64,000 nt of DNA from Minisyncoccota bacterium (lineage in GTDB: Bacteria; Patescibacteriota; Minisyncoccia; Phycocordibacterales; UBA9973), in assembly GCA_041658325.1 (NCBI GenBank), contig JBBAAI010000001.1:279266-343265 (forward strand). Direction: 5' to 3'. The position numbers were made by a program, and so were the translations under genes. Shown piece by piece: positions 25,739 to 51,750 of this stretch. The notes under the pieces are model-generated. The model was not told where the DNA came from. It made no database searches and saw only the letters and a program-made list of their open reading frames with translations. Each line of letters starts with the position of its first letter. The stretch's first letter is position 1.

Positions 25739-26179
25739 TTATAGCCATTCATTCACCCCTCCATGACGAGAACAAGTACCTCTCCTATTTTGGCTAAAAC
25801 TGTAAGTGCCATCACCACATCGAGCAGAAGCTCCAGCTGGTACTGAATTTGAATAGGCTGGAGAATGGACACTATTGCCATAAGTATTTGTGTAATAATT
25901 ATCATTCGAAAGAGAACTTGTATTATTGCTTGGTGTTGTCTTTGGGGCTACCACACTTGGTGCTGTAAATTGGTGTGGTTGAGTATTATATGAATTATAT
26001 GTAGGAATTGTCTGTATTTCTGGATTTACTACTTGGTTGCTTGAATTACCGCCTGAACCTAAAATAACTAAAAATACTGCAATTAGACCAGTTCCGATAT
26101 ATCTTTTTTTCTTATACCAAGGTCTTTCGTCTTTAATATTGGGAATATTTTTTTTTTCGTTTTCCATATTTAATAACAA
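25739..26179 (-). CDS. DUF3761-like secreted/membrane-anchored protein
   Basis: An N-terminal TM helix is followed by a Ser/Thr/Asn-rich linker. The C-terminal CGDGTYSFSQNRRGTCSRHGGVNEWL matches the DUF3761 C-terminal motif. Confidence 0.55.
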   Translation of the reverse strand: MLLNMENEKKNIPNIKDERPWYKKKRYIGTGLIAVFLVILGSGGNSSNQVVNPEIQTIPTYNSYNTQPHQFTAPSVVAPKTTPSNNTSSLSNDNYYTNTYGNSVHSPAYSNSVPAGASARCGDGTYSFSQNRRGTCSRHGGVNEWL

Positions 26180-27108: not shown

Positions 27109-27152
27109 ATTACACTTTTTTTAATTAATAATGTTAATTTGTAATTAGTTAA

Positions 27153-27584
27153 CTATTCTTCATCATTACTACCAAATGTCTTTAAATCAATTAATTTTGA
27201 CTTATACATAATTTCTATTTCTTTGTTTTCAGCATCACTTGTAAATGTGTGGAAAAAATATGTTTCTCCTGTATAAATATCTTTTATTGAATAATGACCC
27301 ACAGCCCCAGAATTCTTTTTATCTTTAAATAAAAGCACGCTTAAGTATAATGCTTCTATACAACTTTTTTGTTTTTGACTGTATAAGGCATGATTTGAAA
27401 CTGTCATTATTCCAGTATCATCTATGTTTGATTTTGGTGCTTCCGCACTCATTTTTTCATAAGCCTTAACACACCCTTCTTGCCTCGCTAGTAAATCTTT
27501 TGTTTGTTTCCCTGAGATATAAAAGATTGTAAAAGCTAAAACCGCGACTCCGATAAAAATAAAAAGTATATTTTGTTTCTTCAT
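27153..27584 (-). CDS. Hypothetical membrane-anchored protein
   Basis: An ORF with an N-terminal TM helix in the same minus-strand run as the flanking small genes. Confidence 0.45.
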   Translation of the reverse strand: MKKQNILFIFIGVAVLAFTIFYISGKQTKDLLARQEGCVKAYEKMSAEAPKSNIDDTGIMTVSNHALYSQKQKSCIEALYLSVLLFKDKKNSGAVGHYSIKDIYTGETYFFHTFTSDAENKEIEIMYKSKLIDLKTFGSNDEE

Positions 27585-27588
27585 GTTA

Positions 27589-27780
27589 TTAATTATTTTT
27601 TTTATTTTGGTAAGACCAATAAATGAACATTAAGAAAATTATTATTCCACCAGTTAAGGAGAAAGCTATGAACTTCTCTCCACCTGTTAAATCTTCTCCA
27701 TTTCTTATGAAATGACCAAAAGAAATAAGCAAGAACCACCAGTTGCGACTCAAAAATTTACCAAAAGTTTCTTTTTCCAT
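27589..27780 (-). CDS. Small hypothetical membrane protein (63 aa)
   Basis: It has two predicted hydrophobic helices and is the first gene of the minus-strand run 27780 to 25739. Confidence 0.3.
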   Translation of the reverse strand: MEKETFGKFLSRNWWFLLISFGHFIRNGEDLTGGEKFIAFSLTGGIIIFLMFIYWSYQNKKNN

Positions 27781-28196
27781 GTGCTTATATTTTGTTTATT
27801 ATTAATAATTCCCGCAGTTGGTAAACAAAAAGCCCACCACTAGGAAAGCCCGAAGGCTTTTATGCAAGTTTCCTCGCATAACGCGTTCAACGCCCCAATG
27901 ATGGGTTTTTTATGTTGAACGCGATTCATAACCATACTCTACTGTTCTTACAATGGAGGTTAGGTCTTATATTTATTTGATTGTTTAGGTATTATATCAC
28001 TTTGATATAGATTTACCATGCCATAGAGCATTATAGGCTTGCTATAGCAATAGCAGGTAAAATTATAGCTCATAAGAAAATCCTTTGTTTATAACCATGG
28101 GGACGGGAGGAGGGACAAATAAACATCACTAGAAAGAATATACTCATCCCTAAATCCATGCCTTTTTAAACTTTTTGTATTACAATTCCAATAGTT

Positions 28197-29075
28197 ATGA
28201 TTAATCCAAAAACGTCAAAGCCAAGTGAATTATTTGAGGGGTTAATAGAAATTGAATTACAACTTCAAAAGAAACTGGAAGAATTAGAAAATACCTACAA
28301 TGAAACCTATCAAAAAGTCAGTGTTGATTTTAAGGTAGCGGGTATTTTAGAATACGAACATGATTCTGGTTCACTGGGTGAAGTAATAAAACATGCAAAT
28401 GAAATTATAAAAATAATTGAGAATATTTTGCACAGTGAAACTATCAATAAAGCCTACACAAAAAGACTTAAGTCAATAACAGAAATTGACAGAAAAACAG
28501 GTTTGAAAAATTTTAAACAAGGGTGGTTAAAAGATGTTGGTAACCATGATTACATAACCGTGTTAATGGATGCCCTATCGGTTGATGAGTGGATTGATAA
28601 ATGTAAAGAAGTTGCACATTATTTAGCAGATTTTGTTGGAGAAAAAAATCCACTTGTTGAAGATTTAAATTTAAATAAAACTTCAAAAGAAAAAACGGAA
28701 ATAAAAGGAATAGATAATAGTAGTGAGGAAATTTACTTAAAAACTTTAGGCATAAAAATTAAGGGAGATTGTATTGCTAAGGGAACAATGAATCTTAAAA
28801 AAGTATTTAATCCCACAGAAAAAGCTTTGATATATTTTTTATTTTTTAGATTTTTAAAGAACAAAGATGAATGTTTTACAATAGATAGTTTAGCAAAAGA
28901 ACTAAAAAAATCAGAAGCTTATATAAAGAATAGCCTTACCAATATATATAAAATAATTAGAAAGACTATGTCACAAGCAAATACTTCTATAAAATGGGAA
29001 CCTCTCATAAAAAATGAACCGAGACGTGGGTATCACTTGAATCCTAGACTTTTTATAGAGGTCATAAAAAAATAA
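28197..29075 (+). CDS. Hypothetical regulator with OmpR/PhoB-type winged-helix C-terminal domain
   Basis: The C-terminus WEPLIKNEPRRGYHLNP resembles the Trans_reg_C recognition wing (xVRGxGYRL). There is no receiver domain. The N-terminal 200 aa are unrecognised. Confidence 0.4.
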   Translation: MINPKTSKPSELFEGLIEIELQLQKKLEELENTYNETYQKVSVDFKVAGILEYEHDSGSLGEVIKHANEIIKIIENILHSETINKAYTKRLKSITEIDRKTGLKNFKQGWLKDVGNHDYITVLMDALSVDEWIDKCKEVAHYLADFVGEKNPLVEDLNLNKTSKEKTEIKGIDNSSEEIYLKTLGIKIKGDCIAKGTMNLKKVFNPTEKALIYFLFFRFLKNKDECFTIDSLAKELKKSEAYIKNSLTNIYKIIRKTMSQANTSIKWEPLIKNEPRRGYHLNPRLFIEVIKK

Positions 29076-29240
29076 CAATTTTAAAAAAAGTTTTAGAATA
29101 TTAATCCTTTGTGTAAAAAACACCTTTCTAAATAATGGTGTTTTTTTTATTGTAATAAATGAGTCACAATTTTGTGATTTTTTTTCATGTCAAAATTAGA
29201 ATAATCCTAAATAAAGGAGATTATAAATAATTAAAAAAAG

Positions 29241-29456
29241 ATGAGAAGCATTGAAAGAAAATTTAAGTATGTTCAGAGAAAAAATCCTTACTGGTCATCA
29301 TTCACTTGCTTTGCCAACACAGTACGTGGGAGGAACTTTAGTAGAGATAGAATTAGGAAATATTTCAACGAATTGGTAGACAAAGAAGAATATGCAAAAG
29401 ACGAGAAGGGGCAAATATTAAAATACTTGTACGACTTAACAAAAGACATGCTGTAG
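29241..29456 (+). CDS. Hypothetical small basic protein (71 aa)
   Basis: ORF only. Confidence 0.3.
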   Translation: MRSIERKFKYVQRKNPYWSSFTCFANTVRGRNFSRDRIRKYFNELVDKEEYAKDEKGQILKYLYDLTKDML

Positions 29457-29472
29457 CGTACCAGTTTTAGAT

Positions 29473-29937
29473 GTGAATGTAGATTATAAACCAGACAGAA
29501 TTCTAAAATGGAGTACTCTGTCCACTAGTAAAAAAATTATGATAAATGACGTAAAAAAGTATTATTTTAGCGAAGCTGTGGCAAAAGAAATAGGAGTTGA
29601 AGAAGCTATTATGTTTAGCAACATATTCTTTTGGGTTAATCACAACAAAAAGAAAAAGAGCGATTATCATTATTATCAAGGCAAGTATTGGATGTTTAAT
29701 ACTGTGCTTAAATTTAAGGAGCAATACTCTTTCTGGACAGTTGCAACAATTAGAAGAATTCTTAATAACCTCCAAAAGAATTCTTATATAGAAGCTGGAA
29801 GATTTAACAAGCATGGGTATGACAAAACCAAATGGTACACAGTTGCCGAAAAAGCCTTTGATGTTGTTGAGAACGACAAAGACTTTGTTGAAACCATTAA
29901 TTCGTTAAGCGAAGAACAGCCAACCAATACCAGATAA
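29473..29937 (+). CDS. Hypothetical protein (154 aa), possible HTH
   Basis: ORF with coding-like composition. Contains SEAVAKEIGVEEAIM, a possible HTH. Confidence 0.4.
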   Translation: MNVDYKPDRILKWSTLSTSKKIMINDVKKYYFSEAVAKEIGVEEAIMFSNIFFWVNHNKKKKSDYHYYQGKYWMFNTVLKFKEQYSFWTVATIRRILNNLQKNSYIEAGRFNKHGYDKTKWYTVAEKAFDVVENDKDFVETINSLSEEQPTNTR

Positions 29938-30008
29938 TATACACAAATAGTATACACATATAGTAATTGATATTATTCATCTCTCCTGCGGATAGATGAA
30001 CCCCCTAT

Positions 30009-30041
30009 AAGATTTATATTCTGAACAGGAATAAATATCTT
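30009..30041. promoter_or_regulatory. Imperfect 13-bp inverted repeat flanking a 7-bp core (AAGATTTATATTC-tgaacag-GAATAAATATCTT)
   Basis: Read directly from the sequence, ~290 bp upstream of the serine recombinase. This geometry is typical of serine-recombinase sites. Confidence 0.3.
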
Positions 30042-30326
30042 GGTTGGCCTAATACGATTATGGTGGTGCGAAGTTAAAACTATTTAGGTGGTTTTTTCCA
30101 ACAATGCGTCAAAAATAAATTAGAAATGATATAATGAAGGAGCTACACGAAAGGTTAATAAGCGAAATTAATTTTATGCCTAGAGAGGGGCAACGAGACC
30201 TTTTGTGTAGCTACAGAAAGTCGCTTCGTTGTCCCTCTTTCGGTATTACTAATAACACGCCTGAAGATGCATCGCTAGATTATTTGGCAAGTATTCTGGT
30301 TGGGGCATTCTTGGATAAAAAAGAAC

Positions 30327-31880
30327 ATGAACATAACCAATTACACAAATCAAAAGAAAGCAGTAATATATTGCCGAGTATCAACCAAAGAACAAGTTGA
30401 CGAAGGCAACAGTTTAAGTACCCAAGAGAAAATCTGTAGAGAATATTGTTTTAAAAATGAATATGATATTTTCCAAACTTTTCTTGAGCAAGGGGAAAGT
30501 GCAAAGACGGCAGACCGTACAGAGCTTCAAAAGCTTCTTGCCTTTTGTGCGGATAAAAAGAATCAAGTAAAAGCAGTAGTAATTTATAAACTGGATAGAT
30601 TGTCTCGCAATACAGATGATTATAGTCAACTTCGTCTTTTACTAAAAAGATATGGAGTGGAAATTAAATCTACATCAGAACATTTTGAAAATAACCCTGT
30701 AGGTCGTTTTATGGAGAATACTATGGCGAATATCGCACAATTTGATAATGACATCCGCTCTGAACGCTGTGCTGGTGGAATGAAAGATGCCATGCGTGAT
30801 GGTAGGTATGTGTGGATGGCTACGGTGGGATATGACAACGTAAAAATAGCAGGGAGGGCAACTATTGCACAAAACGAAATAATGGCTCCATTGATAAAGA
30901 AAACATTTGAACTTATCGCCTTAAATACTTATCCAACGGAAGAAGTTCGAAGAATGATAACAAAAGAGGGGTTGTTAAATCGTAAAGGAAATCCTTTTTC
31001 AAAGGGATATTTTTATAAAATGCTTACCAATGAACTTTTTGCAGGGTGGATTGTTAAGTTTGGAGAAAGGCATAAAGGTACTTCTTTTACACCGATTATC
31101 TCGGAAGAACTTTTTAACCAAGTACAAAGGATATTAAAAAGAAAGGGGAGAAAACATTCTGCTTATCTTACAGATAATCCAGATTTTCCACTTCGTAAGT
31201 TTATAAAAAATGATACAGGTAAAGTACTAACGGGTAGTTGGTCTAGCGGAAGAGATAGAAAATATCCTTTTTATCGTTTTGGTAACGACAAATCAAGTCT
31301 TAATAGAGATACTTTTGAAAAAGACTTTAAAGAATTTATGGATAGATATAAATTAGATGAGAAACATTATCAAAAACTTAAAATACTTGTCCGAGACAAT
31401 CTTACAAAAGCAACATCTGAGCAGAGGAAAGAAGCCGAGCAACTTCAAAAACATATTGATGAATTAAATGAAAAACAATCTGCAATCATTAAGAAGAATC
31501 TTGATGGGGTAATTAATGATAATGTTTTAAAACAACAGCTAGAGCTTATTGAAAATCAATTAACAGATGCAACAGCTTCTCTTTCTAACATTCCAAATAG
31601 TGATGCTGACTACGAAAAGATGCTTGATTTTATGGAAGAATATTTAAAACAACCAAGCAAGATATGGTCTGAAATAAAAAAGGTAGGGATAAAAATTAAA
31701 CTTCAATGGTTCCAATTTCCTTTAGGTTTGACGTTTGAAAATAAAATATTTGGAACCAAGGAAGTAGCTAGTGTTTTCAAAGTAAAAGACGCTTTTTCAG
31801 CGTCTTCGTACTCTAGGGTGGACCGTACAGGACTCGAACCTGCCACCCCCTCATTGCAAATGAGGTGCTCTACCAGATGA
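30327..31880 (+). CDS. Large serine recombinase (resolvase/invertase-type catalytic domain plus recombinase and coiled-coil domains)
   Basis: The catalytic motif AVIYCRVSTKEQ contains the nucleophile Ser. The resolvase core YKLDRLSRN is followed by a ~350-aa C-terminal extension with a coiled-coil. The last ~20 codons read antisense through tRNA-Ala. Confidence 0.85.
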   Translation: MNITNYTNQKKAVIYCRVSTKEQVDEGNSLSTQEKICREYCFKNEYDIFQTFLEQGESAKTADRTELQKLLAFCADKKNQVKAVVIYKLDRLSRNTDDYSQLRLLLKRYGVEIKSTSEHFENNPVGRFMENTMANIAQFDNDIRSERCAGGMKDAMRDGRYVWMATVGYDNVKIAGRATIAQNEIMAPLIKKTFELIALNTYPTEEVRRMITKEGLLNRKGNPFSKGYFYKMLTNELFAGWIVKFGERHKGTSFTPIISEELFNQVQRILKRKGRKHSAYLTDNPDFPLRKFIKNDTGKVLTGSWSSGRDRKYPFYRFGNDKSSLNRDTFEKDFKEFMDRYKLDEKHYQKLKILVRDNLTKATSEQRKEAEQLQKHIDELNEKQSAIIKKNLDGVINDNVLKQQLELIENQLTDATASLSNIPNSDADYEKMLDFMEEYLKQPSKIWSEIKKVGIKIKLQWFQFPLGLTFENKIFGTKEVASVFKVKDAFSASSYSRVDRTGLEPATPSLQMRCSTR

Positions 31881-31891
31881 GCTAACGGCCC
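31819..31891 (-). tRNA. tRNA-Ala (anticodon TGC)
   Basis: The cloverleaf was read by hand. The acceptor is GGGCCGT/ACGGTCC with the G3:U70 Ala identity pair. The anticodon loop is TTTGCAA and the T-loop is TTCGAGT. The discriminator is A. Confidence 0.85.
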
Positions 31892-31939
31892 ATATTATTT
31901 TTTCAATCCCGCTTTTCTTATCCTATGTTGCTTTTACGA

Positions 31940-31975
31940 GGCGCTACAAATGAACTAATGGCCCATATTTACCCA
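31940..31975 (-). pseudogene. Degenerate duplicate of the tRNA-Ala 5' half (D-arm and anticodon stem)
   Basis: gaggcgctacaaatgaactaatggcccatat aligns to the tRNA region gaggtgctctaccagatgagctaacggcccatat. It lies 48 bp outside the tRNA 5' end in the same orientation. Confidence 0.5.
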
Positions 31976-32043
31976 AAGATATTCTATCTTATTTTGCCAA
32001 TAATGCAAATTTTTTTATTATTTTTTAGTGTACAATAAGTAAC

Positions 32044-37332: not shown

Positions 37333-38535
37333 CTAGTTTGAGATTGGAATTTGAGGATTCTCGGGCACTGGCTCCGAGACTCCATTTTTGTTGCTGACAA
37401 CCCTGTAGAAGTACAGGGTATTGTTCAGCAATGCTCCGGGATCAAAGAACGCCAACATGGTGTTCCCTCCGGAAGCAACTAACGACCAGGGACCGTTTGG
37501 GGAAAGAGCTTGATAGATCAAGTATCCGTCTACGAGTCCGACGCCCGTCCCGCACGGCACTTCGGCCGTTTGAGCAATCCAAGATCCCTTCACGTCCGTT
37601 CCTGCTGATTTTGACACCAGAAGGAGAGTCATCGGAGGTTTCCCAGTGCATGTCGGAGTAAGAACAGATGTGGTGACTGACGCCACGTTTCCGTAGCTGT
37701 CAGAGTTTCTGATCTCGATAGAATGGAATGAACCATTTACGAGACCATTAACTTGAAGCGGGGATGTAGGGGTTCCCATAGACACCCCGTTATCAAACAC
37801 CTCCGTGCTGATGATACGAGGGTCAGGTGTTACGCTCCAATCGACATAGATACTGGAGTTGTCGTAACTTCCGATCACATTTGTGGGTGCGTCCAGTGGA
37901 GCATCCCAATACTCAAAATTGGTCAGCCAGACTCCGCTCAACCCAACTGAAAGGTCGGAGATGAATCTAATTCGAAAGATCACATTCGAACCTACGAGGG
38001 TTGATTCTCGAAGGTCCACTCTGATCTTCGTGGATGTCATGGTGCCGGAGTAGGCTTTGGAGATACCTGACCACACGGACCCCACCATGGTTGCGTTGTA
38101 TGTGGGGGTTAGAATACCTCCCACCGTCGTGAATTCAAGCCAGGTTGTGCCGAGGTCGGGCGAGATCTCTACGATCCAGCCGTCGTGTTTGTACTCATTG
38201 GCCCCATTGGCCTGAAGAAAAGCGACGGACATATTGGTGACGAAGAATTGTTGACTCCCGTCGCCGATTTGCAACGTGGAGGTAACCGCCGTCGTTGGAT
38301 CTGGCATGAACCAGGCATAGCTTCCGTTGACATAAGTAGGCATCCAGTTCCAGGAGGGGTTGCTTGTTGCCGGAGTCCATGTCTCACACGGACTCGTGTT
38401 CGGTGATGTGGACGAACTCGCCATCCAGGCAAAGTTGTCCGAACAAATGCTAGCCGACGGTTGCGGAATGGTAGCCCACGTCGCCATGGACACCAAGGTA
38501 ACCAACAGGAACAAAACCAACCCCTTCGTTTTCAT
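37333..38535 (-). CDS. Secreted Ser/Thr-rich protein with fibronectin-III-like domains; GC-rich compositional outlier
   Basis: I chose the start ATG at 38535, which has a GGAGGAAAGG Shine-Dalgarno 8 nt upstream. A signal peptide MKTKGLVLFLLVTLVSMATWA is predicted. GC is ~50% over ~1.2 kb against the ~32% background. Many spurious overlapping ORFs on both strands are consistent with high GC. Confidence 0.6.
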   Translation of the reverse strand: MKTKGLVLFLLVTLVSMATWATIPQPSASICSDNFAWMASSSTSPNTSPCETWTPATSNPSWNWMPTYVNGSYAWFMPDPTTAVTSTLQIGDGSQQFFVTNMSVAFLQANGANEYKHDGWIVEISPDLGTTWLEFTTVGGILTPTYNATMVGSVWSGISKAYSGTMTSTKIRVDLRESTLVGSNVIFRIRFISDLSVGLSGVWLTNFEYWDAPLDAPTNVIGSYDNSSIYVDWSVTPDPRIISTEVFDNGVSMGTPTSPLQVNGLVNGSFHSIEIRNSDSYGNVASVTTSVLTPTCTGKPPMTLLLVSKSAGTDVKGSWIAQTAEVPCGTGVGLVDGYLIYQALSPNGPWSLVASGGNTMLAFFDPGALLNNTLYFYRVVSNKNGVSEPVPENPQIPISN

Positions 38536-38854
38536 CCTTTCCTCCATTTCTCCCTCTCTCAGAGGGATTTTTTTCCCTCTATTTTCACTTGTCAAAGTTC
38601 CAAAAGGATCGCAAGTTGCCAATCCTTCTAGAATAGCCTCTGAATTTTCCATTAATATTGTATTATAAAGAACAACAAATGTCAATAGCAAAAAAAAAGA
38701 AGGAAAAGGTTTTTCTTAACGTGGGTCTTGACATTTTTGTAGTAATAGTAGATAATGTGATCTATTATAAGATCGATAAAATAAGTAATAAATGTTGGGT
38801 TTAATGCGTCTTTATTAGAAGGTCAATTAATTTAGTAGTTAATATTAAAGATAT

Positions 38855-40942
38855 ATGAAAAAGATAAATAATATTGTTTTTGGTTTATTGGTCGCAACGT
38901 TGTTCGCTGGTGTTACTCCAGGTGTAGTTTTCGCAGCTGATAATGAAAGTATTTCATTAGCAGGAGTTGACGCTCGCACGATTGTAACAAACGGAACGAC
39001 GAGTTATGTTTCTAATTTTAATAATACTAATGTTTCAACATTAGATTTTAGTCTTATTCCTCCCGCTTTATCTGCGACAGCTTCGCTTGTTGGTGATGGT
39101 GCTTATGGTCTTTCTTTTGCTAGCGGTAATCTTTTTATAGCAGCTGGAAAATATGATTCAGCTTCCACTTATGGTGGGTTGCAAGTACTTGGCACTTCTG
39201 CTATTTATGGAAAAACTGATACCTATACATACAGTAAGGTTTTCGCTGTAAGCGGTGGATCAGCTTTCTCTGCCTTTCTTGATGGCTCATATATTCCTTA
39301 TCTTGAAGCAGTTTCGTACGATGGTGCTTCTACCATTACTCCTGTTTCTGATGTTGCATTAGATACAACATCAGTTAATGATATTACTGCACTTACTATT
39401 TCTGGAAGTAATGCATATGTTGGGATACAGGATAGTTCAAATGCCGGTTATGTTAAGGTTGTAGATACTTCTACAATGACTTCAACTGGAACATACACGA
39501 CCACTGACACCATAACTTCTGTAACAGTAAGCGGAAGCAATCTATATGTAGGACACGGAAACAAGGTTGATGTTGTAGATACTTCTGGATTAAGTCTTTC
39601 GTCTACTATAGAGACAGGGGCAACAGTCAATGGTTTAGCAACTGATGGAACCTATCTCTATGTGGCAAATGCAAATGGACTTAGAGTTTACACTCTTTCA
39701 GGTTCATTCGTAGGTGAACGTAATACTACAATGAGTGCCACCGCAGTTTCTGTCGATGGTGGTTTTATTTATGTTGCAACCAGTAACGGAACAAATAGTG
39801 AAGTATTTAAAATTAAAATGGTAGTTATCACTTTGACTGGAGCTAATCCACAAACTATAGAATTTGGTGCTGGCTATACAGAATTAGGTGCAACAGTTAG
39901 CGATGGTTCAACTCCTGTAATTACTTCAGACTTTGTTGACGCAATTGGTTCTTATACTGTTACTTATACTGCAGTTGATGCTTCAAGTAATCCCGGTTTT
40001 CAAGTTACAAGAACAGTAAATGTTTCTGACACTACCGCCCCAACAATTACTCTTTTGGGAGCTAATCCACAAAATATTCAGCAAGGTTCTGGTTATACAG
40101 AGTTGGGTGCAACTACGAACGATGGTTCTTCTGTGCAAATAAACACTTCTGCTTTTGTTGACGCAGTTGGTTCTTATGTCATTACTTATGATTCAGTTGA
40201 TGCTTCAGGAAATCATGCAACCCAAGTTGAAAGAAGGGTAAATGTTACTGGCCCAGTAGGCGGCGGTGGAGGCGGTAGCGGTGGTGGCGGATCCTCTGGA
40301 GACACCACTCCTCCCACAGACACTTCTATCTCTATCAGTGCAGGAGCAACTTCCACAGCTACACTAGCCGTTTCTCTAACTCTCGGAGCTACTGGTGCTA
40401 CTCAAATGATCATCTCAAACGATGCAGGATTTGCTGGAGCATCTTGGGAAACATATGCGACAAGTAGAGCTTGGACACTTACTTCTGGAGATGGATTGAA
40501 GACAGTTTATGCAAAGTTCAAAGATGCTGCTGGTAACATATCTGCTGCTATTTCAGATACTATTACTGTTTCTGGAAGTGGGACGACAACAACCACTACT
40601 GGATCTATTCCTGGATGTACTGGAACCACTGGTTACAGTATCACTACTGGCCAATCTTGTGCGGGAAATACAGGAGGGCAAGTTTTGGGCGCTGAAAAAT
40701 TTATTTTCACACTTTTCCTAAAACAAACAACTCCTCCACCATATCCAAAACTTGTTGCCTATGTTAATGAGGTAAAAGAACTTCAAAAATTCTTGAATGC
40801 TGCTCCATATAATAGTGGTTTAGTAGTTGATGGCAAATTTGGTCCACTGACTAAGGCTGCAGTTATTAAATTCCAATTGGCAAATGGATTAGTAGGGGAT
40901 GGTAAAGTTGGTCCTCTTACCCGAGCAGTGTTGAACAAATAA
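38855..40942 (+). CDS. Secreted surface protein: beta-propeller-like repeats, two Ig-like (DUF5011-type) domains, Gly-rich linker, C-terminal PG_binding_1 domain
   Basis: A signal peptide is predicted. Repeated SGSN(L/A)YVG...VVDTS blocks are LVIVD-like. The Ig-like domains are tandem, each LTGANPQ.I..G.GYTELGAT..DGS....TS.FVDA(I/V)GSY.(V/I)TY..VDASSN. The Gly-rich linker is GGGGGSGGGGSSG. The C-terminal PGB1 domain is VVDGKFGPLTKAAVIKFQLANGLVGDGKVGPLT. Confidence 0.65.
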   Translation: MKKINNIVFGLLVATLFAGVTPGVVFAADNESISLAGVDARTIVTNGTTSYVSNFNNTNVSTLDFSLIPPALSATASLVGDGAYGLSFASGNLFIAAGKYDSASTYGGLQVLGTSAIYGKTDTYTYSKVFAVSGGSAFSAFLDGSYIPYLEAVSYDGASTITPVSDVALDTTSVNDITALTISGSNAYVGIQDSSNAGYVKVVDTSTMTSTGTYTTTDTITSVTVSGSNLYVGHGNKVDVVDTSGLSLSSTIETGATVNGLATDGTYLYVANANGLRVYTLSGSFVGERNTTMSATAVSVDGGFIYVATSNGTNSEVFKIKMVVITLTGANPQTIEFGAGYTELGATVSDGSTPVITSDFVDAIGSYTVTYTAVDASSNPGFQVTRTVNVSDTTAPTITLLGANPQNIQQGSGYTELGATTNDGSSVQINTSAFVDAVGSYVITYDSVDASGNHATQVERRVNVTGPVGGGGGGSGGGGSSGDTTPPTDTSISISAGATSTATLAVSLTLGATGATQMIISNDAGFAGASWETYATSRAWTLTSGDGLKTVYAKFKDAAGNISAAISDTITVSGSGTTTTTTGSIPGCTGTTGYSITTGQSCAGNTGGQVLGAEKFIFTLFLKQTTPPPYPKLVAYVNEVKELQKFLNAAPYNSGLVVDGKFGPLTKAAVIKFQLANGLVGDGKVGPLTRAVLNK

Positions 40943-41005
40943 TTCTCATTAAGAATAACAAAGCCCTATCTTTACAGATAGGGCTTTGTTTGTTATAATT
41001 GGATA

Positions 41006-41971
41006 ATGTTTAATTGGTTAAAAAAGCATTTTATTCCGCATGAGGGAAATGAACATCGTCCGCATATTTTGCGTGATTATAATATTCGTAATATTGTTGC
41101 TGTTATTTTATTTTTGGAAATATTTACTTTTTTAATACCAACTCTTACTCACATAAATATAACAGGTGGTATGGCGGCGGTGTTGCCTGGGGTTTTATCT
41201 ATTCTCACAAACGAAGAACGTCAATCACAAAACCTCAAAACACTTACAGTAAGTCCAGTTTTAAATCAAGTGGCAGAAATGAAAGCCAAAGATATGGCTA
41301 CAAAAGGATACTTTGCGCATATTAGTCCAGAGGGAAAAACCCCTTGGTATTGGCTTGAAAAAGTAGGATACAAATATCAATATGCTGGAGAAAATCTTGC
41401 TATCAATTTCAATGATTCGAAAGATGTTACGAATGCATGGATGGCAAGTCCAACTCATAAAAAAAATATTATGAAAGGAAACTACACTGAGATTGGCACA
41501 GGTATCGCTATGGGAATTTATGAAGGAAGAGAAACGATTTTTGTAGCGCAAGTATATGCTAATCCTCTTTCAAAAACAGAAACTCAAACGGAGCCTATAA
41601 AAAAACCTACCCCTACCTCTGTAATTAGAGAAGAGTCAACAAATGTTCTTGGAGCAGAGGTTGCTGTTAATATAGAAAACGTTGATGTTGTGCCACCTGC
41701 TCCAATTTTACAACCAACACTTTGGCAAAAAGCTTTTTCTTCTCCTCGTAATACAATGAATATAATTTTGTTTAGCATATTTGCTGTAATTGGTTTTGCT
41801 TTGCTTTTATACATACTTGTAAAAGCAAGACAATATCACCTTGATCTGATAACAAATGGACTGATTGTTCTTGCTATTTTAGGAGCAATTTTTATTGTGA
41901 ATTACTATTTTAGTAATAAAAATATGGTTATTACTCAAAGTATGGATTATTCTCTAGGCTCAAATAATTAG
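41006..41971 (+). CDS. CAP/SCP (PR-1-like, YkwD-type) domain protein with N- and C-terminal TM helices
   Basis: The CAP motifs are GYFAHISPEGKTPWYWLEKVGYKYQYAGENLA and WMASPTHKKNIM. Confidence 0.7.
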   Translation: MFNWLKKHFIPHEGNEHRPHILRDYNIRNIVAVILFLEIFTFLIPTLTHINITGGMAAVLPGVLSILTNEERQSQNLKTLTVSPVLNQVAEMKAKDMATKGYFAHISPEGKTPWYWLEKVGYKYQYAGENLAINFNDSKDVTNAWMASPTHKKNIMKGNYTEIGTGIAMGIYEGRETIFVAQVYANPLSKTETQTEPIKKPTPTSVIREESTNVLGAEVAVNIENVDVVPPAPILQPTLWQKAFSSPRNTMNIILFSIFAVIGFALLLYILVKARQYHLDLITNGLIVLAILGAIFIVNYYFSNKNMVITQSMDYSLGSNN

Positions 41972-44630: not shown

Positions 44631-44981
44631 ATGGAGGGACTTAAAATATATAAAGAGGAACGTCCGTGGGGCGGATTTGAGCAATTTGTCCAGAATACTC
44701 TCTCAACAGTAAAAATTATTTTAGTAAAAAAAGATGAAGCCTTTAGTTTGCAGTATCATAACAACAGAAAAGAGTTTTGGAAAATTCTTTCCGGAACGCC
44801 AGAAATTACAATAGGGGATTCTGTTGTTCGGGCAAAAGAAGGAGATGAATTTGAAATACCACCGAAAACAAAACATCGTGTTCATTCTAGTGATACTGAT
44901 ACAGAATTTTTAGAAATTTCGCTTGGGGAGTTTGATGAAAATGATATTATAAGGCTAGAAGACAAATATGGCCGTGCTTAA
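44631..44981 (+). CDS. Cupin-2 domain protein, type-II mannose-6-phosphate isomerase-like
   Basis: ERPWGGFEQF...KIILVKKDEAFSLQYHNNRKEFWKILSGT...IGD...EGDEFEIPPKTKHRV...DIIRLEDKYGR matches the C-terminal cupin of GMP/PMI (RPWG...HxHR..EHW..VSG...HR..N..EDDIVR.EDxYGR). Confidence 0.65.
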   Translation: MEGLKIYKEERPWGGFEQFVQNTLSTVKIILVKKDEAFSLQYHNNRKEFWKILSGTPEITIGDSVVRAKEGDEFEIPPKTKHRVHSSDTDTEFLEISLGEFDENDIIRLEDKYGRA

Positions 44982-46212
44982 AAAAAGGAAAATAATTAAA
45001 AAAAAGAAAATTAAAATTGCTGTAAAAAAGAAAACAGTAATAAAAAAAGTTTCTCCAAAAAAGAAAAAGAAAGTTATTGTAGTGCGAAGAAAAATAATAA
45101 AGAAAAAGATTGTAAAAAAAACAGTATTGAAACCAAAAAAGAAAGGCAAAAAATTAGCAAAAATTTTAAAACTTTCCAGATCTTCGCGTAATCCAATTAT
45201 TGATCCAGGGGCACATTATTGGGAATCTCAAGCTGTCTTTAACCCAGCAACAGTTGTTTCAAATGGACGCATACACCTTTTTTATCGAGCTCTTGGTGGA
45301 GACGGTATTTCTCGTATTGGTTATGCTTCTAGTAAAGATGGAATAAATTTTGATGAAAGACTTTCTTATCCAGTTTATTTTTTGAAAAACGATGAAGAAA
45401 TGAAAAAGCATTGGCCTTATACTTCTCCCGCACGACCTGTTTATGACACGGCTCTCTATGCTTCAGGTGGAGGGTGGGGTGGTTGTGAAGACCCTCGTGC
45501 AGTGTTAATAGGAGATAAAGTATATATGACTGTTAATATTTTTAATGGTTGGAATTCTATACGGGTAGCGGTAATTTCGATTAAAGAGGAAGATTTATTA
45601 GATAAAAAATGGCTTTGGCAAGATTTTTCTTACCTCTCTCATCTAGGAGATAGGCAAAAAAATTGGCTTTTATTTCCTGAAAAGATAAACGGTAAATTTG
45701 CGATATTTCACAATTTAGATAAAGGTGATCCATCGCGGGTGTCCATTGCTTTTGTAAATAAGCTTGATACTTCTGAAACACCCTCCGGGAAGAATGCTCC
45801 AGATCCCCAGACTCTACCAGATCACATTGTGGCTTGGCATAAACGTACTCGTAGTGCCGCTGCTCCACCGATTAAAACCAAAGAGGGTTGGCTTCTTTTA
45901 TACCATGCTATGGACAAAGACAATTCTCGTTATAAATTAGGTGCATTATTGCTTGATTTAAAAGATCCGGAGAAAGTTCTTTATCGAGCCCAGCATCCGA
46001 TTCTTGAGCCAGAGACTTGGTATGAAAATGATTGGAAGCCAGGAATTATTTATGCGAGTGGCGCGATTGTGTTGAAAGATAAACTTTTTGTCTATTATGG
46101 AGGAGGAGATAAACACATCGGTGTAGCATCAATAAAACTCTCCGACTTGATAGATAGTATGAAAAAGAATGGATCGGTAAAATTAGAAAAAAACAAATCA
46201 CTAAAATTTTAA
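44968..46212 (+). CDS. GH130-like glycoside phosphorylase/hydrolase (DUF377 beta-propeller) with Lys-rich N-terminal tail
   Basis: After ~65 aa of K-rich sequence, NPIIDPGAHYWESQAVFNPA...FYRALG...IGYASSKDGINF is a GH130/DUF377 block. Repeated GW.LLYH and YYGGGD patterns are present. It overlaps the cupin gene by 14 nt. Confidence 0.7.
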   Translation: MAVLKKRKIIKKKKIKIAVKKKTVIKKVSPKKKKKVIVVRRKIIKKKIVKKTVLKPKKKGKKLAKILKLSRSSRNPIIDPGAHYWESQAVFNPATVVSNGRIHLFYRALGGDGISRIGYASSKDGINFDERLSYPVYFLKNDEEMKKHWPYTSPARPVYDTALYASGGGWGGCEDPRAVLIGDKVYMTVNIFNGWNSIRVAVISIKEEDLLDKKWLWQDFSYLSHLGDRQKNWLLFPEKINGKFAIFHNLDKGDPSRVSIAFVNKLDTSETPSGKNAPDPQTLPDHIVAWHKRTRSAAAPPIKTKEGWLLLYHAMDKDNSRYKLGALLLDLKDPEKVLYRAQHPILEPETWYENDWKPGIIYASGAIVLKDKLFVYYGGGDKHIGVASIKLSDLIDSMKKNGSVKLEKNKSLKF

Positions 46213-46221
46213 TAAGTATTT

Positions 46222-48159
46222 ATGTACGTAGTAAAAAGATCTCATCATAATCCAATCCTTGCCCCATATAGAGACCATTATTGGGAGGCTTTTGCTACGT
46301 TCAATATGAGTGTCGTAAAAAAAGGTAAAACTTTTTATGGTGTATATCGCGCTATTTCGGCAGAAGATAGATTACTTACTCCACATCAAATTTCTACTAT
46401 AGGTATAGGAAAAAGTGAGAACACTGTGCACTTTGAAGATTGTGTACCTTTTATTGTACCTGAAGAAGAATGGGAAAAATACGGTTGTGAAGATCCACGC
46501 ATTACTTTCTTTGAAGGAAATTATTATACATTTTATACAGCTCTTTCAAAATATCCTTTTGAAGCCAGCGGAATCAAAGTTGCTGTAGCGATTTCAAAAG
46601 ATTTAAAAAAAATCGATGAAAGACATTTGATAACACCTTTTAATGCGAAAGCAATGACTCTTTTCCCGGAACGCATCAATGGAAAGATCACGGTTATTGT
46701 TACGGTAAATACAGATATGCCTCCCTCGAAAATTGCGATAGCACAAGTAGATAAAATAGAAGATTTGTGGAATCAAAAGTTTTGGGAAAAATGGTATTTG
46801 AACATAGATAAATATGCAGTTGATTTTAGAAGAGTACCGTCTGACCATACAGAGATTGGAGCTTCGCCAATTAAAACTGCTCACGGTTGGTTGCTCTTGT
46901 ATTCACATATTCAAAATTATTTTCCTGGGGGAGACGGCTCTGATCGTATCTTTGGAATTGAAGCGGTACTTCTCGATATTAATAATCCTCTTAAAATTTT
47001 AGGACGGACGCGTAGTCCTCTTTTAGTCCCTAGAGAATCATATGAACTGTTAGGGCATGTTTCTGATATAGTTTTTCCCTCGGGCGCAATTTTAGAAAAA
47101 GATACACTTTATATTTATTATGGGGCAGCAGATACAACGACTTGTATGGCTCATGTAAATTTGACTGATCTTTTGGGAACAATTCGTCCAGAAACTTCTC
47201 ACAAATGGCGTTTTTGTCGTTCTTCTAAAAACCCAATTATCACACCAGAAAAAACACATTCATGGGAATCTAAAGCTACGTTTAATCCAGCTGCTTTAAG
47301 AATCCGTGGGATAACCCATTTATTATATCGAGCGCTTTCAGAAGATAATACTTCCTCTATTGGTTATGCTAAAAGTAAAGATGGTATTACTTTCTACGAA
47401 AGATCTGAGCAACCCATTTATATTCCAAGAGAAGATTTTGAATTAAAAAAAGTTGCAGGTGGTAATTCTGGTTGCGAGGATCCTAGATTAACGAAAATAG
47501 GGAAAATTATTTATATGTGCTACACAGCCTTTGATGGCATTGGTCCGCCACGTGTTGCTGTTACTTCTATCACAGAGAAAAATTTTCTTCTTAAAAATTG
47601 GCAATGGGAAAAACCTACCATAATAACACCTGCCGGTTTTGATGATAAAGATACTTGTATTTTTCCTGAAAAAACAAATGGTAAATATTTTATTTTGCAC
47701 CGAGTGGGAGATGAAATGTGTGGAGATTATCTTAAGGCACTTAATTTTAAAACTCAAATAGTTAAAAAATGTACCAGAATCATAGGACCAAGAAAAAACA
47801 GTTGGGACAGTTTAAGAGTTGGAATATCTGCTCCACCAATAAAAACAAAATATGGATGGCTGCTTCTTTATCATGGTATTTCAAAAAGCCATCATACCTA
47901 TCGTATCGGAGCTCTTTTACTTGACCTTAAAGATCCAGCTATAATTTTGGCGCGTTCATCTGATCCTATCTTTGAGCCAGAAGAATTATATGAAAAGGTT
48001 GGTATAGTTAATAACGTTGTTTTCCCGTGCGGGATGGTAGAGAAAGATGGTTTGCTTTATATATATTATGGTGGGGCGGATACAGTTGTCGGAGTAGCCA
48101 CTATGGATCTTAAAATTCTTTTAAGAGCTCTCATGAGGGATATAAAGAAAAAAAGGTAA
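46222..48159 (+). CDS. Tandem double GH130-like (DUF377) domain protein
   Basis: Two full copies of the NPI(L/I).P...W(E/S)..ATFN...YRA(I/L)S...IG(I/Y)(G/A)KS.DG..F block are present. Each has HGWLLLY, YYG(A/G)AD and C-terminal beta-propeller blades. Confidence 0.7.
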   Translation: MYVVKRSHHNPILAPYRDHYWEAFATFNMSVVKKGKTFYGVYRAISAEDRLLTPHQISTIGIGKSENTVHFEDCVPFIVPEEEWEKYGCEDPRITFFEGNYYTFYTALSKYPFEASGIKVAVAISKDLKKIDERHLITPFNAKAMTLFPERINGKITVIVTVNTDMPPSKIAIAQVDKIEDLWNQKFWEKWYLNIDKYAVDFRRVPSDHTEIGASPIKTAHGWLLLYSHIQNYFPGGDGSDRIFGIEAVLLDINNPLKILGRTRSPLLVPRESYELLGHVSDIVFPSGAILEKDTLYIYYGAADTTTCMAHVNLTDLLGTIRPETSHKWRFCRSSKNPIITPEKTHSWESKATFNPAALRIRGITHLLYRALSEDNTSSIGYAKSKDGITFYERSEQPIYIPREDFELKKVAGGNSGCEDPRLTKIGKIIYMCYTAFDGIGPPRVAVTSITEKNFLLKNWQWEKPTIITPAGFDDKDTCIFPEKTNGKYFILHRVGDEMCGDYLKALNFKTQIVKKCTRIIGPRKNSWDSLRVGISAPPIKTKYGWLLLYHGISKSHHTYRIGALLLDLKDPAIILARSSDPIFEPEELYEKVGIVNNVVFPCGMVEKDGLLYIYYGGADTVVGVATMDLKILLRALMRDIKKKR

Positions 48160-49881: not shown

Positions 49882-51750
49882 ATGAGGAAAATATTTAAAA
49901 GTAAAATTTTAATATTAATAATCTTATTGGGGCTATCAGCTCAAATAGCTTTTGCTTATAGTATTACACCGTTTGGTATTACTGATGCTATTCCCGGGGG
50001 GATAACAATAGACGGAGCCGGGAATATATATACGGCAAACTACAATGGTGCAAATAACGTCTCTAAAATCACTCCAGCCGGTGTTTCAACTATTCTTGGC
50101 ACTACTGGTGCCGAGCCGACCGGCATAATAACAGACGGAGCCGGGAATATATATACGGCAAACTATAGCGCAAATAACGTCTCTAAAATCACTCCAGCCG
50201 GTGTTTCAACTATTCTTGGCACGACTGGTACCAATCCGTATAGTATAACAATAGACGGAGATGGGAATATATATACGGCAAACATTGGTTCAGATAATGT
50301 CACTAAGATCACCCCAGCCGGTGTTTCAACTATTCTTGGCACTACTGGTGCCGGTCCGTATGGTATAACAATAGACGGAGCTGGGAATATATATACTTCA
50401 AACTATAGCGCAAATAACGTCTCTAAAATCACTCCAGCCGGTGTTTCAACTATTCTTGGCACGACTGGTAATGGTCCATGGGGTATAACAATAGACGGAG
50501 CTGGAAATATATATACTTCAAACTATGAAGCAAACAACGTCTCTAAAATCACTCCAGCCGGTGTTTCAACTATTCTTGGCACTACTGGTGCCAATCCGCA
50601 AGATATAACAATAGACGGAGCTGGGAATATATATACTTCAAACTATAGCGCAAATAACGTCTCTAAAATCACTCCAGCCGGTGTTTCAACTATTCTTGGC
50701 ACTACTGGTACCGAGCCGCAAGAGATAACAATAGACGGAGCTGGGAATATATATACGGCAAACAGTGGCTCAAATAATGTTTCTAAAATCACTAATCCGA
50801 CAATCACCGAAGTAACTCCGGTTACAACGCCAATAGTTACTGATAGTCTATTAGACTATACTTTTAATAGCAATAGCGATGGATCAATTTCTGTAGGGGG
50901 CTCTTGTGGTTCAATCACAACAAGCGCAATCGCAGGAGATAATGCTATTACTTTTGATGCGCTTCCTGCTGGCACATATTCTAATTGTACAATAATAGTT
51001 ACCGATAGTTTTGGTCCAAGTAATACGCTTGCAGTTTCTTCTTTTGTTGTTTCTACTACCCCCACCGTCACATCTTCTCCTGCCACAAACATAACTAGAG
51101 TCGGAGCCACCTTAAATGGAGAAATCACTGCTACCGGAGGAGCCGATGCTACCGCCAGAGGTTTCCAATATGGTATGACCAACAGTTATGGCACGACAGT
51201 TACTGAATCAAGTGGTCCCTACAGTACAGGAGTCTTCACCGCTGACCTCTCTAACTTACTCACCTGTGGTCAACCCTACTATTTCCGTGCTTACGCTACC
51301 AACATTGCAGGTACGAGCTATGGAGCAGAAACTACTTTTACCACCACTACTTGTGATACCGGAGGGGGAGGAGGCGGAACAGTAACTCCACCTCCAGTAA
51401 TTCCTCCCGTAACCCCACCCGTTGTTCCTCCTGTCACTCCACCGGTTGTACCACCACCCACAACCATAAACACCATCTGTAATCTTGGAGATAATTTCAG
51501 TGCTACAACTGGTTTGCCTTGTACTTCTTATTATCAAACAAATCCAACATCAAGTTGTCCCATTACTGTTACTTTAAGGTTTGGTTATAGGGGGAATCAA
51601 GTTAAATGTTTACAAATAGGTTTAAATATTTCTGCTGATGGTATTTTTGGATTACAAACCAAAGCGGCTGTTATTAAATTTCAAAAAAGCAAGGGTTTGG
51701 TGCCAGACGGAATATTTGGTCCTAAATCACGAGCTTTGTGGCTAAAATAA
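49882..51750 (+). CDS. Secreted repeat protein: ~9 tandem 40-aa beta-propeller (NHL/SBBP-like) repeats, Pro-rich linker, C-terminal PG_binding_1 domain
   Basis: A signal peptide is predicted. The repeat ITIDGAGNIYT(A/S)NY.ANNVSKITPAGVSTILGTTG occurs ~9 times. The Pro-rich linker is PPVIPPVTPPVVPPVTPPVVPPP. The C-terminal PGB1 domain is ADGIFGLQTKAAVIKFQKSKGLVPDGIFGPKS. Confidence 0.65.
   Translation: MRKIFKSKILILIILLGLSAQIAFAYSITPFGITDAIPGGITIDGAGNIYTANYNGANNVSKITPAGVSTILGTTGAEPTGIITDGAGNIYTANYSANNVSKITPAGVSTILGTTGTNPYSITIDGDGNIYTANIGSDNVTKITPAGVSTILGTTGAGPYGITIDGAGNIYTSNYSANNVSKITPAGVSTILGTTGNGPWGITIDGAGNIYTSNYEANNVSKITPAGVSTILGTTGANPQDITIDGAGNIYTSNYSANNVSKITPAGVSTILGTTGTEPQEITIDGAGNIYTANSGSNNVSKITNPTITEVTPVTTPIVTDSLLDYTFNSNSDGSISVGGSCGSITTSAIAGDNAITFDALPAGTYSNCTIIVTDSFGPSNTLAVSSFVVSTTPTVTSSPATNITRVGATLNGEITATGGADATARGFQYGMTNSYGTTVTESSGPYSTGVFTADLSNLLTCGQPYYFRAYATNIAGTSYGAETTFTTTTCDTGGGGGGTVTPPPVIPPVTPPVVPPVTPPVVPPPTTINTICNLGDNFSATTGLPCTSYYQTNPTSSCPITVTLRFGYRGNQVKCLQIGLNISADGIFGLQTKAAVIKFQKSKGLVPDGIFGPKSRALWLK
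49990..50790 (+). repeat. Near-identical ~120-123-bp tandem DNA repeats (about 7 units) inside the 49882 gene
   Basis: The block ctctaaaatcactccagccggtgtttcaactattcttggcac recurs at ~120-bp period with only a few substitutions per unit. The repeats are in-frame coding. Confidence 0.7.

Follow-up and report, generated by a model that had tools for sequence, protein, structure and literature searches.

A candidate surface-display protein with a beta-propeller head and a C-terminal PG_binding_1 domain in a Nomurabacteria-like member of the Paceibacteria

The gene and its surroundings

The window, that is, the whole stretch of 64,000 nucleotides that was analysed, carries on its forward strand a complete gene of 695 codons at 38855..40942. 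The identical protein is already deposited, under a generic annotation, from a Candidatus Paceibacterota MAG. The features of the gene, of its flanks and of a related gene further downstream are as follows.

38728..38756, + strand: TTGACA-17-GATAAT (11/12), promoter-like by consensus match only, some 100 nt before the start codon
38855..40942, + strand: complete CDS, 695 aa, ATG start, NCBI MFA5778204.1
38855..38935, + strand: Sec-type signal peptide, residues 1-27 (MKK, hydrophobic core, VFA/ADNES cleavage; rule-of-thumb call)
38936..39829, + strand: seven-bladed beta-propeller, residues 28-325 (HMMs and structure model)
39830..40039, + strand: Ig-like domain 1 (DUF5011 / Bact_surface_Ig-like), residues 326-395 (Pfam, model)
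40040..40252, + strand: Ig-like domain 2 (DUF5011; also matches InlK_D3), residues 396-466 (Pfam, model)
40253..40303, + strand: residues 467-483, a flexible Gly/Ser linker that marks the left junction of the swapped module
40304..40585, + strand: Ig-like domain 3 (FN3/PKD/Big_13-like beta-sandwich), residues 484-577 (model, fold match)
40616..40660, + strand: Cys-bracketed loop CTGTTGYSITTGQSC, residues 588-602, a recurrent mini-motif just upstream of PGB1 in the lineage
40670..40939, + strand: C-terminal PG_binding_1 (PGB1) unit, residues 606-695 (Pfam match 638-693)
40957..40990, + strand: 15-bp GC-containing hairpin, terminator-like and bidirectional, directly after the stop codon
49882..51750, + strand: another protein of this design, with a signal peptide and an NHL/SBBP-type propeller, beta-sandwich domains and Pro/Gly linkers; a Cys loop (at 51478) and PG_binding_1 are also present

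The gene order around 38855..40942 is shared by orthologs in at least four related genomes, and the surroundings are conserved housekeeping and envelope genes (MltG, a CAP-domain protein, SIMPL and sugar-nucleotide/GH130 genes). Peptidoglycan-related machinery (MreB, MreC, MltG/YceG) is encoded within the window. The gene is unlikely to form an operon with the CAP gene that follows it, since the strong terminator-like hairpin lies between the two together with a new promoter-like site (40971-40999) that overlaps it; promoter-like sites in the region are no more numerous than in shuffled sequence. The GC content of the gene exceeds that of the window (0.40 vs 0.35), and horizontal acquisition was considered and rejected because codon usage is native (GC3 0.20). 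The GC excess follows from a composition rich in T, G, S, A and V (57% of residues).

The divergently transcribed neighbour at 37333..38535 differs from the window's other ORFs in GC3 (0.60 vs ~0.25), an anomaly also seen in its orthologs; it is fast-evolving, and its product is probably secreted. Neither folding z-scores nor Rfam supported a structured RNA behind its high GC, and a phage origin was set aside with no PHROG match and no phage tblastn match. At 49882, where the preliminary description had seen the same design logic as in 38855..40942, we found an NHL/SBBP/Vgb_lyase-type propeller, linkers, a PG_binding_1 match of 38.1 bits and the same Cys-loop motif, and the claimed likeness holds.

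Signal peptide, propeller, Ig-like domains and tail

The 695-aa protein begins with the n-h-c pattern of a signal peptide, as had been described. A core of 17 hydrophobic residues, the sole Kyte-Doolittle peak in the protein, is followed by V-F-A/A, and the A-x-A/A site is kept in all seven orthologs; the call was made heuristically, on small residues at -3 and -1, with no trained predictor. Signal peptidase I would cut after VFA(27). With this conserved Sec-type signal and no cytoplasmic signature, the protein is probably secreted, and the cytoplasmic localisation that would have spoken against the earlier proposal is not indicated. No lipobox is present (the first Cys is residue 588), and neither an LPXTG-like motif nor a C-terminal hydrophobic segment was found in the protein, which places it outside both the lipoprotein and the sortase-anchored (LPXTG) classes. 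In the absence of a second hydrophobic segment, a lipobox or LPXTG, PGB1 is therefore the only candidate retention module.

The head has a beta-propeller fold. Its last four blades, 4-7, which span residues 174-325, are evident as tandem repeats of LVIVD type, 34-43 aa long where the family repeat measures about 42 aa. Blades 1-3 are degenerate and were undetected by a repeat HMM built from the other four, and residues 46-75 have low confidence in the AlphaFold2 model. The LVIVD-like propeller proposed at the outset is supported by the agreement of HMMs and structure model, with a Pfam match (PF08309) that is marginal here (21.0 bits vs a cut-off of 20.2, or +0.8, in one stretch at residues 222-247) and clear in orthologs (32.2 bits in P0006, 36.9 in P0018 and 29.4 in P0255). 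Further support comes from a propeller-domain profile, which retrieves proteins scoring 470-613 bits on LVIVD; the LVIVD proteins found with it are mostly giants with 5-28 matched stretches. This exhaustive profile search was used for propeller relatives inside longer proteins; a word-index search with the N-terminal 330 aa, among matches up to ~1.75x the query length, gave a single fragment. The LVIVD repeat was defined on cell-surface proteins (PMC2447325). With 695 aa and a single propeller, however, the product is not the large repeat protein, in the adhesin sense, that it had been called.

Structural matches of the propeller are generic WD40-like scaffolds at 9-17% identity, with YncE and BamB, two propellers of the bacterial envelope, among the best, and a PDB sequence search with the propeller and Ig region gave no match. 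These results bear on the idea of a hidden enzymatic activity in the propeller, for example that of a lyase, a lactonase or some other hydrolase, which PGB1 would bring to wall or host polysaccharide as it does in the classical wall enzymes with this domain. We regard this as very improbable: Pfam, NCBIfam and PDB sequence searches with the propeller matched no enzyme family, the proteins related to it in sequence are LVIVD repeat proteins without known catalysis, and its structural matches are of the generic kind.

The two tandem DUF5011 domains of the preliminary description are confirmed by a PF16403 (Bact_surface_Ig-like/DUF5011) match in two stretches (59.9 bits, cut-off 27) and by the model, in which residues 326-466 are all-beta (pLDDT 79-88) and form Ig-like beta-sandwiches. 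The same domains match InlK_D3 at 26.6 bits (cut-off 25). The poly-Gly linker is likewise present, as GGGGGGSGGGGSSG at residues 469-482 (pLDDT <50). It is encoded by an imperfect GGN repeat of 9 nt (40259-40290); phase variation through this repeat was rejected, the imperfect 9-nt unit being in-frame. What had been taken for a domain of unknown function, residues 484-577, is instead a third Ig-like spacer, modelled as a beta-sandwich (pLDDT 94-98) that matches FN3/PKD/BIg folds and has a sub-threshold Big_13 match (E 0.024).

Ig-like domain 3 is 95.7% identical to its counterpart in a paralog from the same genome (MFA5777922.1) and is absent from all orthologs, some of which carry one or two InlB-B-repeat-like domains (divergent, Flg_new_2) as middle modules and others none. 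The junctions of the swapped module are located within low-complexity linkers, and the swap is read from protein identity only. For DNA of the paralog (P0122), sought in order to examine gene conversion at synonymous sites, an exact look-up gave no match, and a metagenome scan returned only relatives 33-76% identical and not its contig.

The Cys loop CTGTTGYSITTGQSC is covered by no Pfam or NCBIfam model and is poorly modelled (pLDDT 55-66). The C-terminal PGB1 claimed earlier is secure: PF01471 matches at 57.1 bits (cut-off 23) over model positions 3-57 of 57, and the AlphaFold2 model is a three-helix bundle (H634-648, H664-676, H687-694; pLDDT 84-97). A D-G-x-x-G-x-x-T consensus is familiar from the phiKZ/EL endolysin literature. 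The tail carries it twice, as DGKFGPLT (residue 659) and DGKVGPLT (residue 682), and in 93 relatives no columns are better conserved, with G, G and T at >=90%. Solved structures similar to the unit are PG-binding domains from wall enzymes and endolysins (1lbu, 4xxt, 4lpq, 7rum, 3bkh). Of 103 related proteins, 96 carry PGB1 no more than five residues from the C-terminus, behind many different passenger domains, and to judge from these sequences such placement is what a generic anchoring module would show.

Conservation and the proposed function

Identity between orthologs is highest in PGB1 (80-84%), intermediate in the Ig pair (53-78%) and lowest in the propeller (41-61%); for the housekeeping genes on either side the figure is 70-86%. 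This gradient would fit a tail with a constant self-ligand and a head that faces outward and diversifies, and weaker constraint on the head would explain it just as well. The likeliest reading, to which we give a probability of about 0.55, is that 38855..40942 is a monocistronic gene for a Sec-secreted cell-envelope protein of a Nomurabacteria-like member of the Paceibacteria (CPR/Patescibacteria), held on the producer's own wall and displaying a binding head. The three-helix bundle of PGB1 would hold the protein non-covalently on the producer's peptidoglycan, with a disulfide-type Cys loop that would probably assist in wall retention. The three Ig-like domains and the flexible Gly linker would form a stalk, and this would project the seven-bladed LVIVD-type propeller as the ligand-binding head. 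The likeliest class of ligand would be a structure exposed on a partner or host cell, or a polymer from the environment, making the product an adhesin-like display protein. What the analysis shows is the ORF with its domain composition and predicted folds, the conserved synteny and the conservation gradient; secretion, wall retention, orientation and binding function of the 695-aa protein are what we infer. Non-covalent wall anchoring is consistent with PGB1 being the only possible retention module, the best conserved and terminal throughout the lineage, and with the peptidoglycan machinery encoded in the window. As a counterpoint to a display anchor, PGB1 is joined to a wall-active enzyme or endolysin in every solved structure that was matched.

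PGB1 might instead target a foreign wall, that of a bacterial host or prey, with the protein released or otherwise held; the Cys loop may then help PGB1, and the propeller and Ig part would stay by the episymbiont or recruit factors. PGB1 does direct solved proteins and phage endolysins to the wall that is their substrate, release is possible for a protein with no membrane or covalent anchor, and PGB domains have been suggested for host attachment (PMC10936435). We nevertheless consider a foreign wall quite unlikely, since it would leave no module to retain the protein on the producer, and 80-84% identity in PGB1 while the rest diverges is easier explained by a constant self-ligand. Moreover, this type of tail serves many unrelated passengers. 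To our knowledge, methanogenic archaea have no murein. The hosts reported for Paceibacteria in PMC10936435 are such archaea, which also argues against this possibility.

A structural or organising envelope component, S-layer-like or a wall scaffold, would involve no host contact, and the propeller would bind envelope proteins or polymers of the producing cell itself, as BamB or YncE do in the periplasm. Consistent with such a role, YncE and BamB are among the best structural matches, the neighbourhood is one of conserved housekeeping and envelope genes, and the combination of a propeller with an Ig-like (PKD) domain is known from an archaeal surface-layer protein (1l0q). Sequence change in the head, however, is much faster than in the neighbouring genes, and close relatives carry swapped stalk modules, a pattern unusual for a core structural scaffold. 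The family was also found in only three GTDB species representatives, in a search with two peptide patterns. We judge this role possible at about one chance in five.

Comparison with known systems

Proteins of the Listeria internalin B type combine a binding head, an Ig-like inter-repeat domain, a B-repeat and non-covalent GW wall-association modules. The design logic of an N-terminal head, Ig-like spacers and a C-terminal non-covalent wall module is shared with the 695-aa protein, and the link extends to the InlK_D3 match of its Ig domains and to the divergent InlB B-repeat domains (Flg_new_2) of its orthologs. Internalin B, however, has a leucine-rich-repeat head and a GW anchor where a propeller and PG_binding_1 are found here, and with no LRR match in the 695-aa protein it falls outside the internalin family.

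The C-terminal 60-70 residues are homologous to domains of the Streptomyces albus Zn DD-carboxypeptidase (1lbu), an L,D-transpeptidase (4lpq) and phiKZ gp144 (3bkh), with which the three-helix bundle and the twin DG..G..T are common. In those proteins PGB1 is fused to a catalytic domain, whereas here it is accompanied only by binding and spacer modules and a lineage-specific Cys loop. Closer to hand, the P0122-type Paceibacteria proteins of ~350 aa, known as 'peptidoglycan-binding domain-containing' (among them MFA5777922.1 and Nomurabacteria A2903_02485), share the Gly linker, Ig-like module, Cys loop and PGB1, but a small, different N-terminal beta domain replaces the propeller and DUF5011 pair, and their PGB1 is of a different subtype, ~40% identical in the aligned part.

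A surface-layer fragment of Methanosarcina mazei (1l0q) has a seven-bladed propeller followed by PKD, and the order of propeller and Ig-like domain is thus shared. The Methanosarcina proteins (1l0q; LVIVD, PMC2447325) are archaeal and have no PGB1 tail, and the solved structure is of the YVTN subtype. The giant LVIVD proteins, with their 5-28 matched stretches, differ from the single propeller found here.

Paceibacteria highly express extracellular proteins with PGB domains and Ig-like folds, for which host attachment has been proposed (Kuroda et al. 2024; PMC10936435). Those proteins, from Ca. Yanofskyibacterium and Ca. Minisyncoccus, are secreted, as the 695-aa protein probably is, and come from organisms of the same class; the proposed attachment role is shared too, as well as the combination of Ig-like folds with a PGB domain, which is C- or N-terminal in them. 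They were chosen by expression level, and their published description mentions no LVIVD propeller head; the likeness drawn here is one of description. With this proposal as its one precedent for Paceibacteria, host adhesion by the candidate adhesin at 38855..40942 is plausible; with the adhesin class itself, only the architecture and the conservation gradient of the product are compatible. A more far-reaching idea is that the Cys loop and PGB1 form a wall-sorting signal specific to Nomurabacteria-like Paceibacteria, for which the SLH, LysM and GW modules of Firmicutes are the proposed analogues, with interchangeable heads that recombination in the low-complexity linkers would reshuffle, and that the propeller protein and the product of 37333..38535 form an episymbiont's conserved two-gene host-attachment module. 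We hold this to be doubtful, with odds well against it.

The product of 38855..40942 is an ordinary but real example of a putative surface-display protein, put together from familiar domains. Most CPR/Patescibacteria are episymbionts that have not been cultured, and their attachment to hosts is a standing question, for which the gene offers a conserved, clonable attachment candidate with a defined propeller head, a Cys loop and PGB1 as putative anchor, and natural stalk variants, and PGB1 itself would act as a general C-terminal display tag in the lineage.

Domains and predicted structure of the propeller protein

The reading frame that had been proposed for a secreted propeller protein was recovered as placed in the preliminary description, starting with ATG and encoding 695 residues, and the Pfam scan found each of the domain families named there. 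Two stretches matched the DUF5011 pair (Bact_surface_Ig-like, PF16403) at 59.9 bits (cut-off 27), and the C-terminal PG_binding_1 domain (PGB1, PF01471) scored 57.1 bits (cut-off 23) over residues 638-693; the protein is a member of both families. LVIVD (PF08309) passed narrowly, at 21.0 bits vs 20.2, and the protein belongs to this repeat family marginally. InlK_D3 was also above cut-off on the second Ig-like domain (26.6 vs 25). The expected signal peptide is present at the N-terminus, where MKK is followed by a 17-residue hydrophobic core and V-F-A/A-D-N-E-S; this core is the sole hydrophobic segment of the protein, and the signal peptide with its A-x-A/A site is kept in all orthologs. There is no Cys ahead of residue 588, and inspection of the protein sequence found no LPXTG-like motif.

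38855..40942, + strand: gene for the propeller protein
40616..40660, + strand: Cys-bracketed loop CTGTTGYSITTGQSC, 15 residues, after the third Ig-like domain and ahead of PGB1

A full-length AlphaFold2 model, built from 36 aligned sequences, had a mean pLDDT of 77.9, with residues 130-320 above 90 and four parts of low confidence: residues 46-75 and 576-610, the signal peptide and the Gly linker (469-483). At the sequence level, only the last four propeller blades (residues 174-325) are recognisable as mutual repeats, and the first three are degenerate. In a second model, of the C-terminal 223 residues (93 aligned relatives, mean pLDDT 86), residues 484-577, previously described as a domain of unknown function, fold with confidence into a beta-sandwich (pLDDT 94-98). 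This is a third Ig-like domain; among solved structures it comes closest to FN3-like, PKD and BIg modules from secreted enzymes and adhesins, and its Pfam match to Big_13 was below threshold (E 0.024). This module (residues 483-579, 40301..40591) also matched phrog_10898, a PHROG family of unknown function, at E 8.9e-9, and is therefore also present in phage proteins. PGB1 is predicted to form a three-helix bundle with two DG-x-x-G-P-L-T motifs, whose columns are the most conserved among the 93 relatives. Its sequence is similar to those of the PG-binding domains in 1lbu, 4xxt, 4lpq, 7rum and phiKZ gp144. Because searches of Pfam, NCBIfam and PDB sequences gave no match to a catalytic family, a cryptic enzyme is the weakest of the three alternatives considered here and very improbable.

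AlphaFold confidence was only moderate for the Cys-bracketed loop, and neither Pfam nor NCBIfam covers the motif. The pattern C-x(2-6)-[GDN]-x(0,1)-[FYM]-[SNT]-x2-[TS]-G-x2-C was found, in one to three copies each, in 53 proteins out of the 388 retrieved, and lies directly upstream of the C-terminal PG_binding_1 in the members inspected. It spans 15-16 residues with the consensus C-[GD]-N-R-T-T-G-F-S-x2-T-G-Q-S-C, many instances falling among retrieved proteins P0122-P0237, and could belong to the wall-binding unit. The motif recurs (51478..51522) in the gene at 49882..51750, which had been singled out as a second protein of the same design and does combine an NHL/SBBP/Vgb_lyase-type propeller with PG_binding_1 (38.1 bits, Pfam scan).

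Distribution, conservation and a probable module exchange

An identical protein is already at NCBI (MFA5778204.1, from a 356,709-bp contig of a Candidatus Paceibacterota bacterium MAG), annotated generically as 'immunoglobulin-like domain-containing protein'. The full-length search gave 611 matches, most over the DUF5011 pair alone (~20% of the query); the full LVIVD, DUF5011 and PGB1 design was found in seven retrieved proteins (P0006, at 80% identity in the search listing, P0007, P0008, P0010, P0013, P0018 and P0021). A propeller-region profile run against 1.84 billion cluster representatives matched end to end only in P0001, P0018 and P0255 and over most of its length in P0363, and the remaining 21,240 matches were mostly giant repeat proteins in which the last blades were matched many times. 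LVIVD was present in all five of the profile matches scanned with Pfam, the three multi-repeat ones scoring 470-613 bits. Among GTDB species representatives, the family was found at only three loci (two peptide patterns), one of them in Candidatus Nomurabacteria GW2011_GWB1_40_7.

Orthologs in four other genomes, where synteny is kept, are 44-66% identical to the protein overall, with identity rising from the head to the tail.

Identity to orthologs, by domain or flanking gene
Propeller: 41-61%
DUF5011 pair: 53-78%
PGB1: 80-84%
Flanking CAP: 70-71%
Flanking SIMPL: 76-79%
Flanking HAD: 84-86%

The middle of the protein follows no orthology across the family. The third Ig-like module is absent from all orthologs; the corresponding place in them is either empty or taken up by divergent InlB-B-repeat domains (Flg_new_2), one or two in number. 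Its reciprocal closest match at the protein level is in MFA5777922.1 (P0122), a 371-aa PGB protein encoded on a contig of equal length (356.7 kb), probably elsewhere on the same one, with 95.7% identity over 94 residues; the second-best match reaches 83%. The shared stretch (40271..40600; 96% identical with the Gly linker included) starts within the Gly linker and stops in a Thr-rich linker, and the PGB1 behind it is of the kind found in the orthologs rather than in P0122. From these sequence comparisons we infer a probable recent intragenomic exchange of the module via low-complexity linkers.

Gene neighbourhood and an anomalous divergent gene

The promoter-like site, the hairpin and a new promoter-like site downstream indicate that the gene appears to be monocistronic. 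Its GC3 of 0.20 reflects native codons.

38728-38756: promoter-like TTGACA-17-GATAAT, upstream of the gene
40957-40990: 15-bp hairpin, directly 3' of the stop codon
40971-40999: promoter-like site of the next gene, overlapping the terminator hairpin

The conserved order runs from a ~400-aa secreted protein on the opposite strand, with no Pfam match, through the propeller protein gene to genes for a CAP-domain membrane protein, SIMPL, a cytidylyltransferase-like protein, a HAD/PMM-type hydrolase, a cupin/mannose-6-phosphate isomerase-like protein and GH130 genes. The gene directly downstream (41006..41971, +) keeps its place in all relatives; in its product a CAP/SCP (PR-1-like) domain precedes a hydrophobic region at the C-terminus. 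The adjacent GH130-family pair (414 and 645 aa; 44968..48159, +) follows the cytidylyltransferase-like, HAD/PMM and cupin/MPI-like trio. Conserved in all related loci, this cassette resembles a unit for mannosides or sugar nucleotides, set beside the surface-protein genes.

The divergent gene (37333..38535, -) most likely starts at 38535, with an SD-like GGAGGA, and encodes 400 aa with the signal peptide MKTKGLVLFLLVTLVSMATWA. It has a GC of 0.518, and its GC3 of 0.601 lies ~8 sd above the average of ~0.25 for the window's remaining 53 ORFs; both C-ending and G-ending codons are enriched, and the anomaly is limited to the CDS. Orthologs have a GC3 of 0.58-0.69 and are the top outlier at each of the three loci checked.

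L001:6407-7615, - strand: ortholog of the divergent gene
L002:6585-7709, - strand: ortholog
L004:6509-7696, - strand: ortholog
L005:2357-3544, - strand: ortholog

These orthologs are just 33-44% identical in amino acids, compared with 70-86% for flanking genes, at strictly conserved synteny; simple recent HGT does not account for the anomaly. Structured RNA as its cause found no support, folding z-scores giving no sign of pervasive RNA structure. Searches of Pfam, PDB, PHROG and phage proteins returned no match.

Further upstream, a serine recombinase ORF (30300..31880, +) with Resolvase and Recombinase domains overlaps at its 3' end tRNA-Ala (31816..31892, -). It is adjoined by a region of low GC (0.295-0.31, 26-30 kb) with several ORFs without Pfam matches and by a LOOT RNA (27845..27966, -); 26000..32000 may be an integrated mobile element.

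Proposed retention on the cell wall and the use of PGB1 in relatives

The best-supported reading is that the C-terminal PGB1 unit would retain the secreted protein on the producer's own peptidoglycan, with the Ig-like stalk carrying a propeller head that would bind an external ligand. Arguing for it are PGB1 as the only retention module, the conservation of the tail while the head diverges, the modular stalk and the generic use of the same tail behind many passengers; the wall-anchored design of the preliminary description agrees with it. The window encodes MreB, MreC and MltG/YceG, and the organism therefore has wall-building machinery. That PGB1 instead binds a foreign wall seems to us distinctly unlikely. 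A purely structural envelope scaffold, to which envelope propellers and the archaeal S-layer propeller + PKD structure 1l0q offer an analogy, is somewhat less doubtful, though still unlikely. Display on the producer's own wall would resemble in function that by internalin-B-type proteins, in which a binding head and Ig-like spacers are joined to a module that associates non-covalently with the wall, although the protein lacks LRR and is therefore not a member of that family. The one pointer to a host cell as the ligand is a proposal for related Paceibacteria, in which extracellular PGB-domain and Ig-like proteins are highly expressed and host attachment was proposed (PMC10936435); by analogy, the propeller head may bind a host cell.

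Of the 103 retrieved Patescibacteria proteins with a similar PGB1, 96 have no more than 5 residues between this domain and the C-terminus; the passengers that precede it include DUF5011, Big_2, Flg_new, LTD, SdrD_B and MBG domains, and in two genomes (L001, L002) extra PGB1 protein genes lie just upstream of the orthologous locus. Given this position, the varied passengers and the clustered genes, the behaviour of PGB1 in this Patescibacteria lineage is like that of a general display tag.
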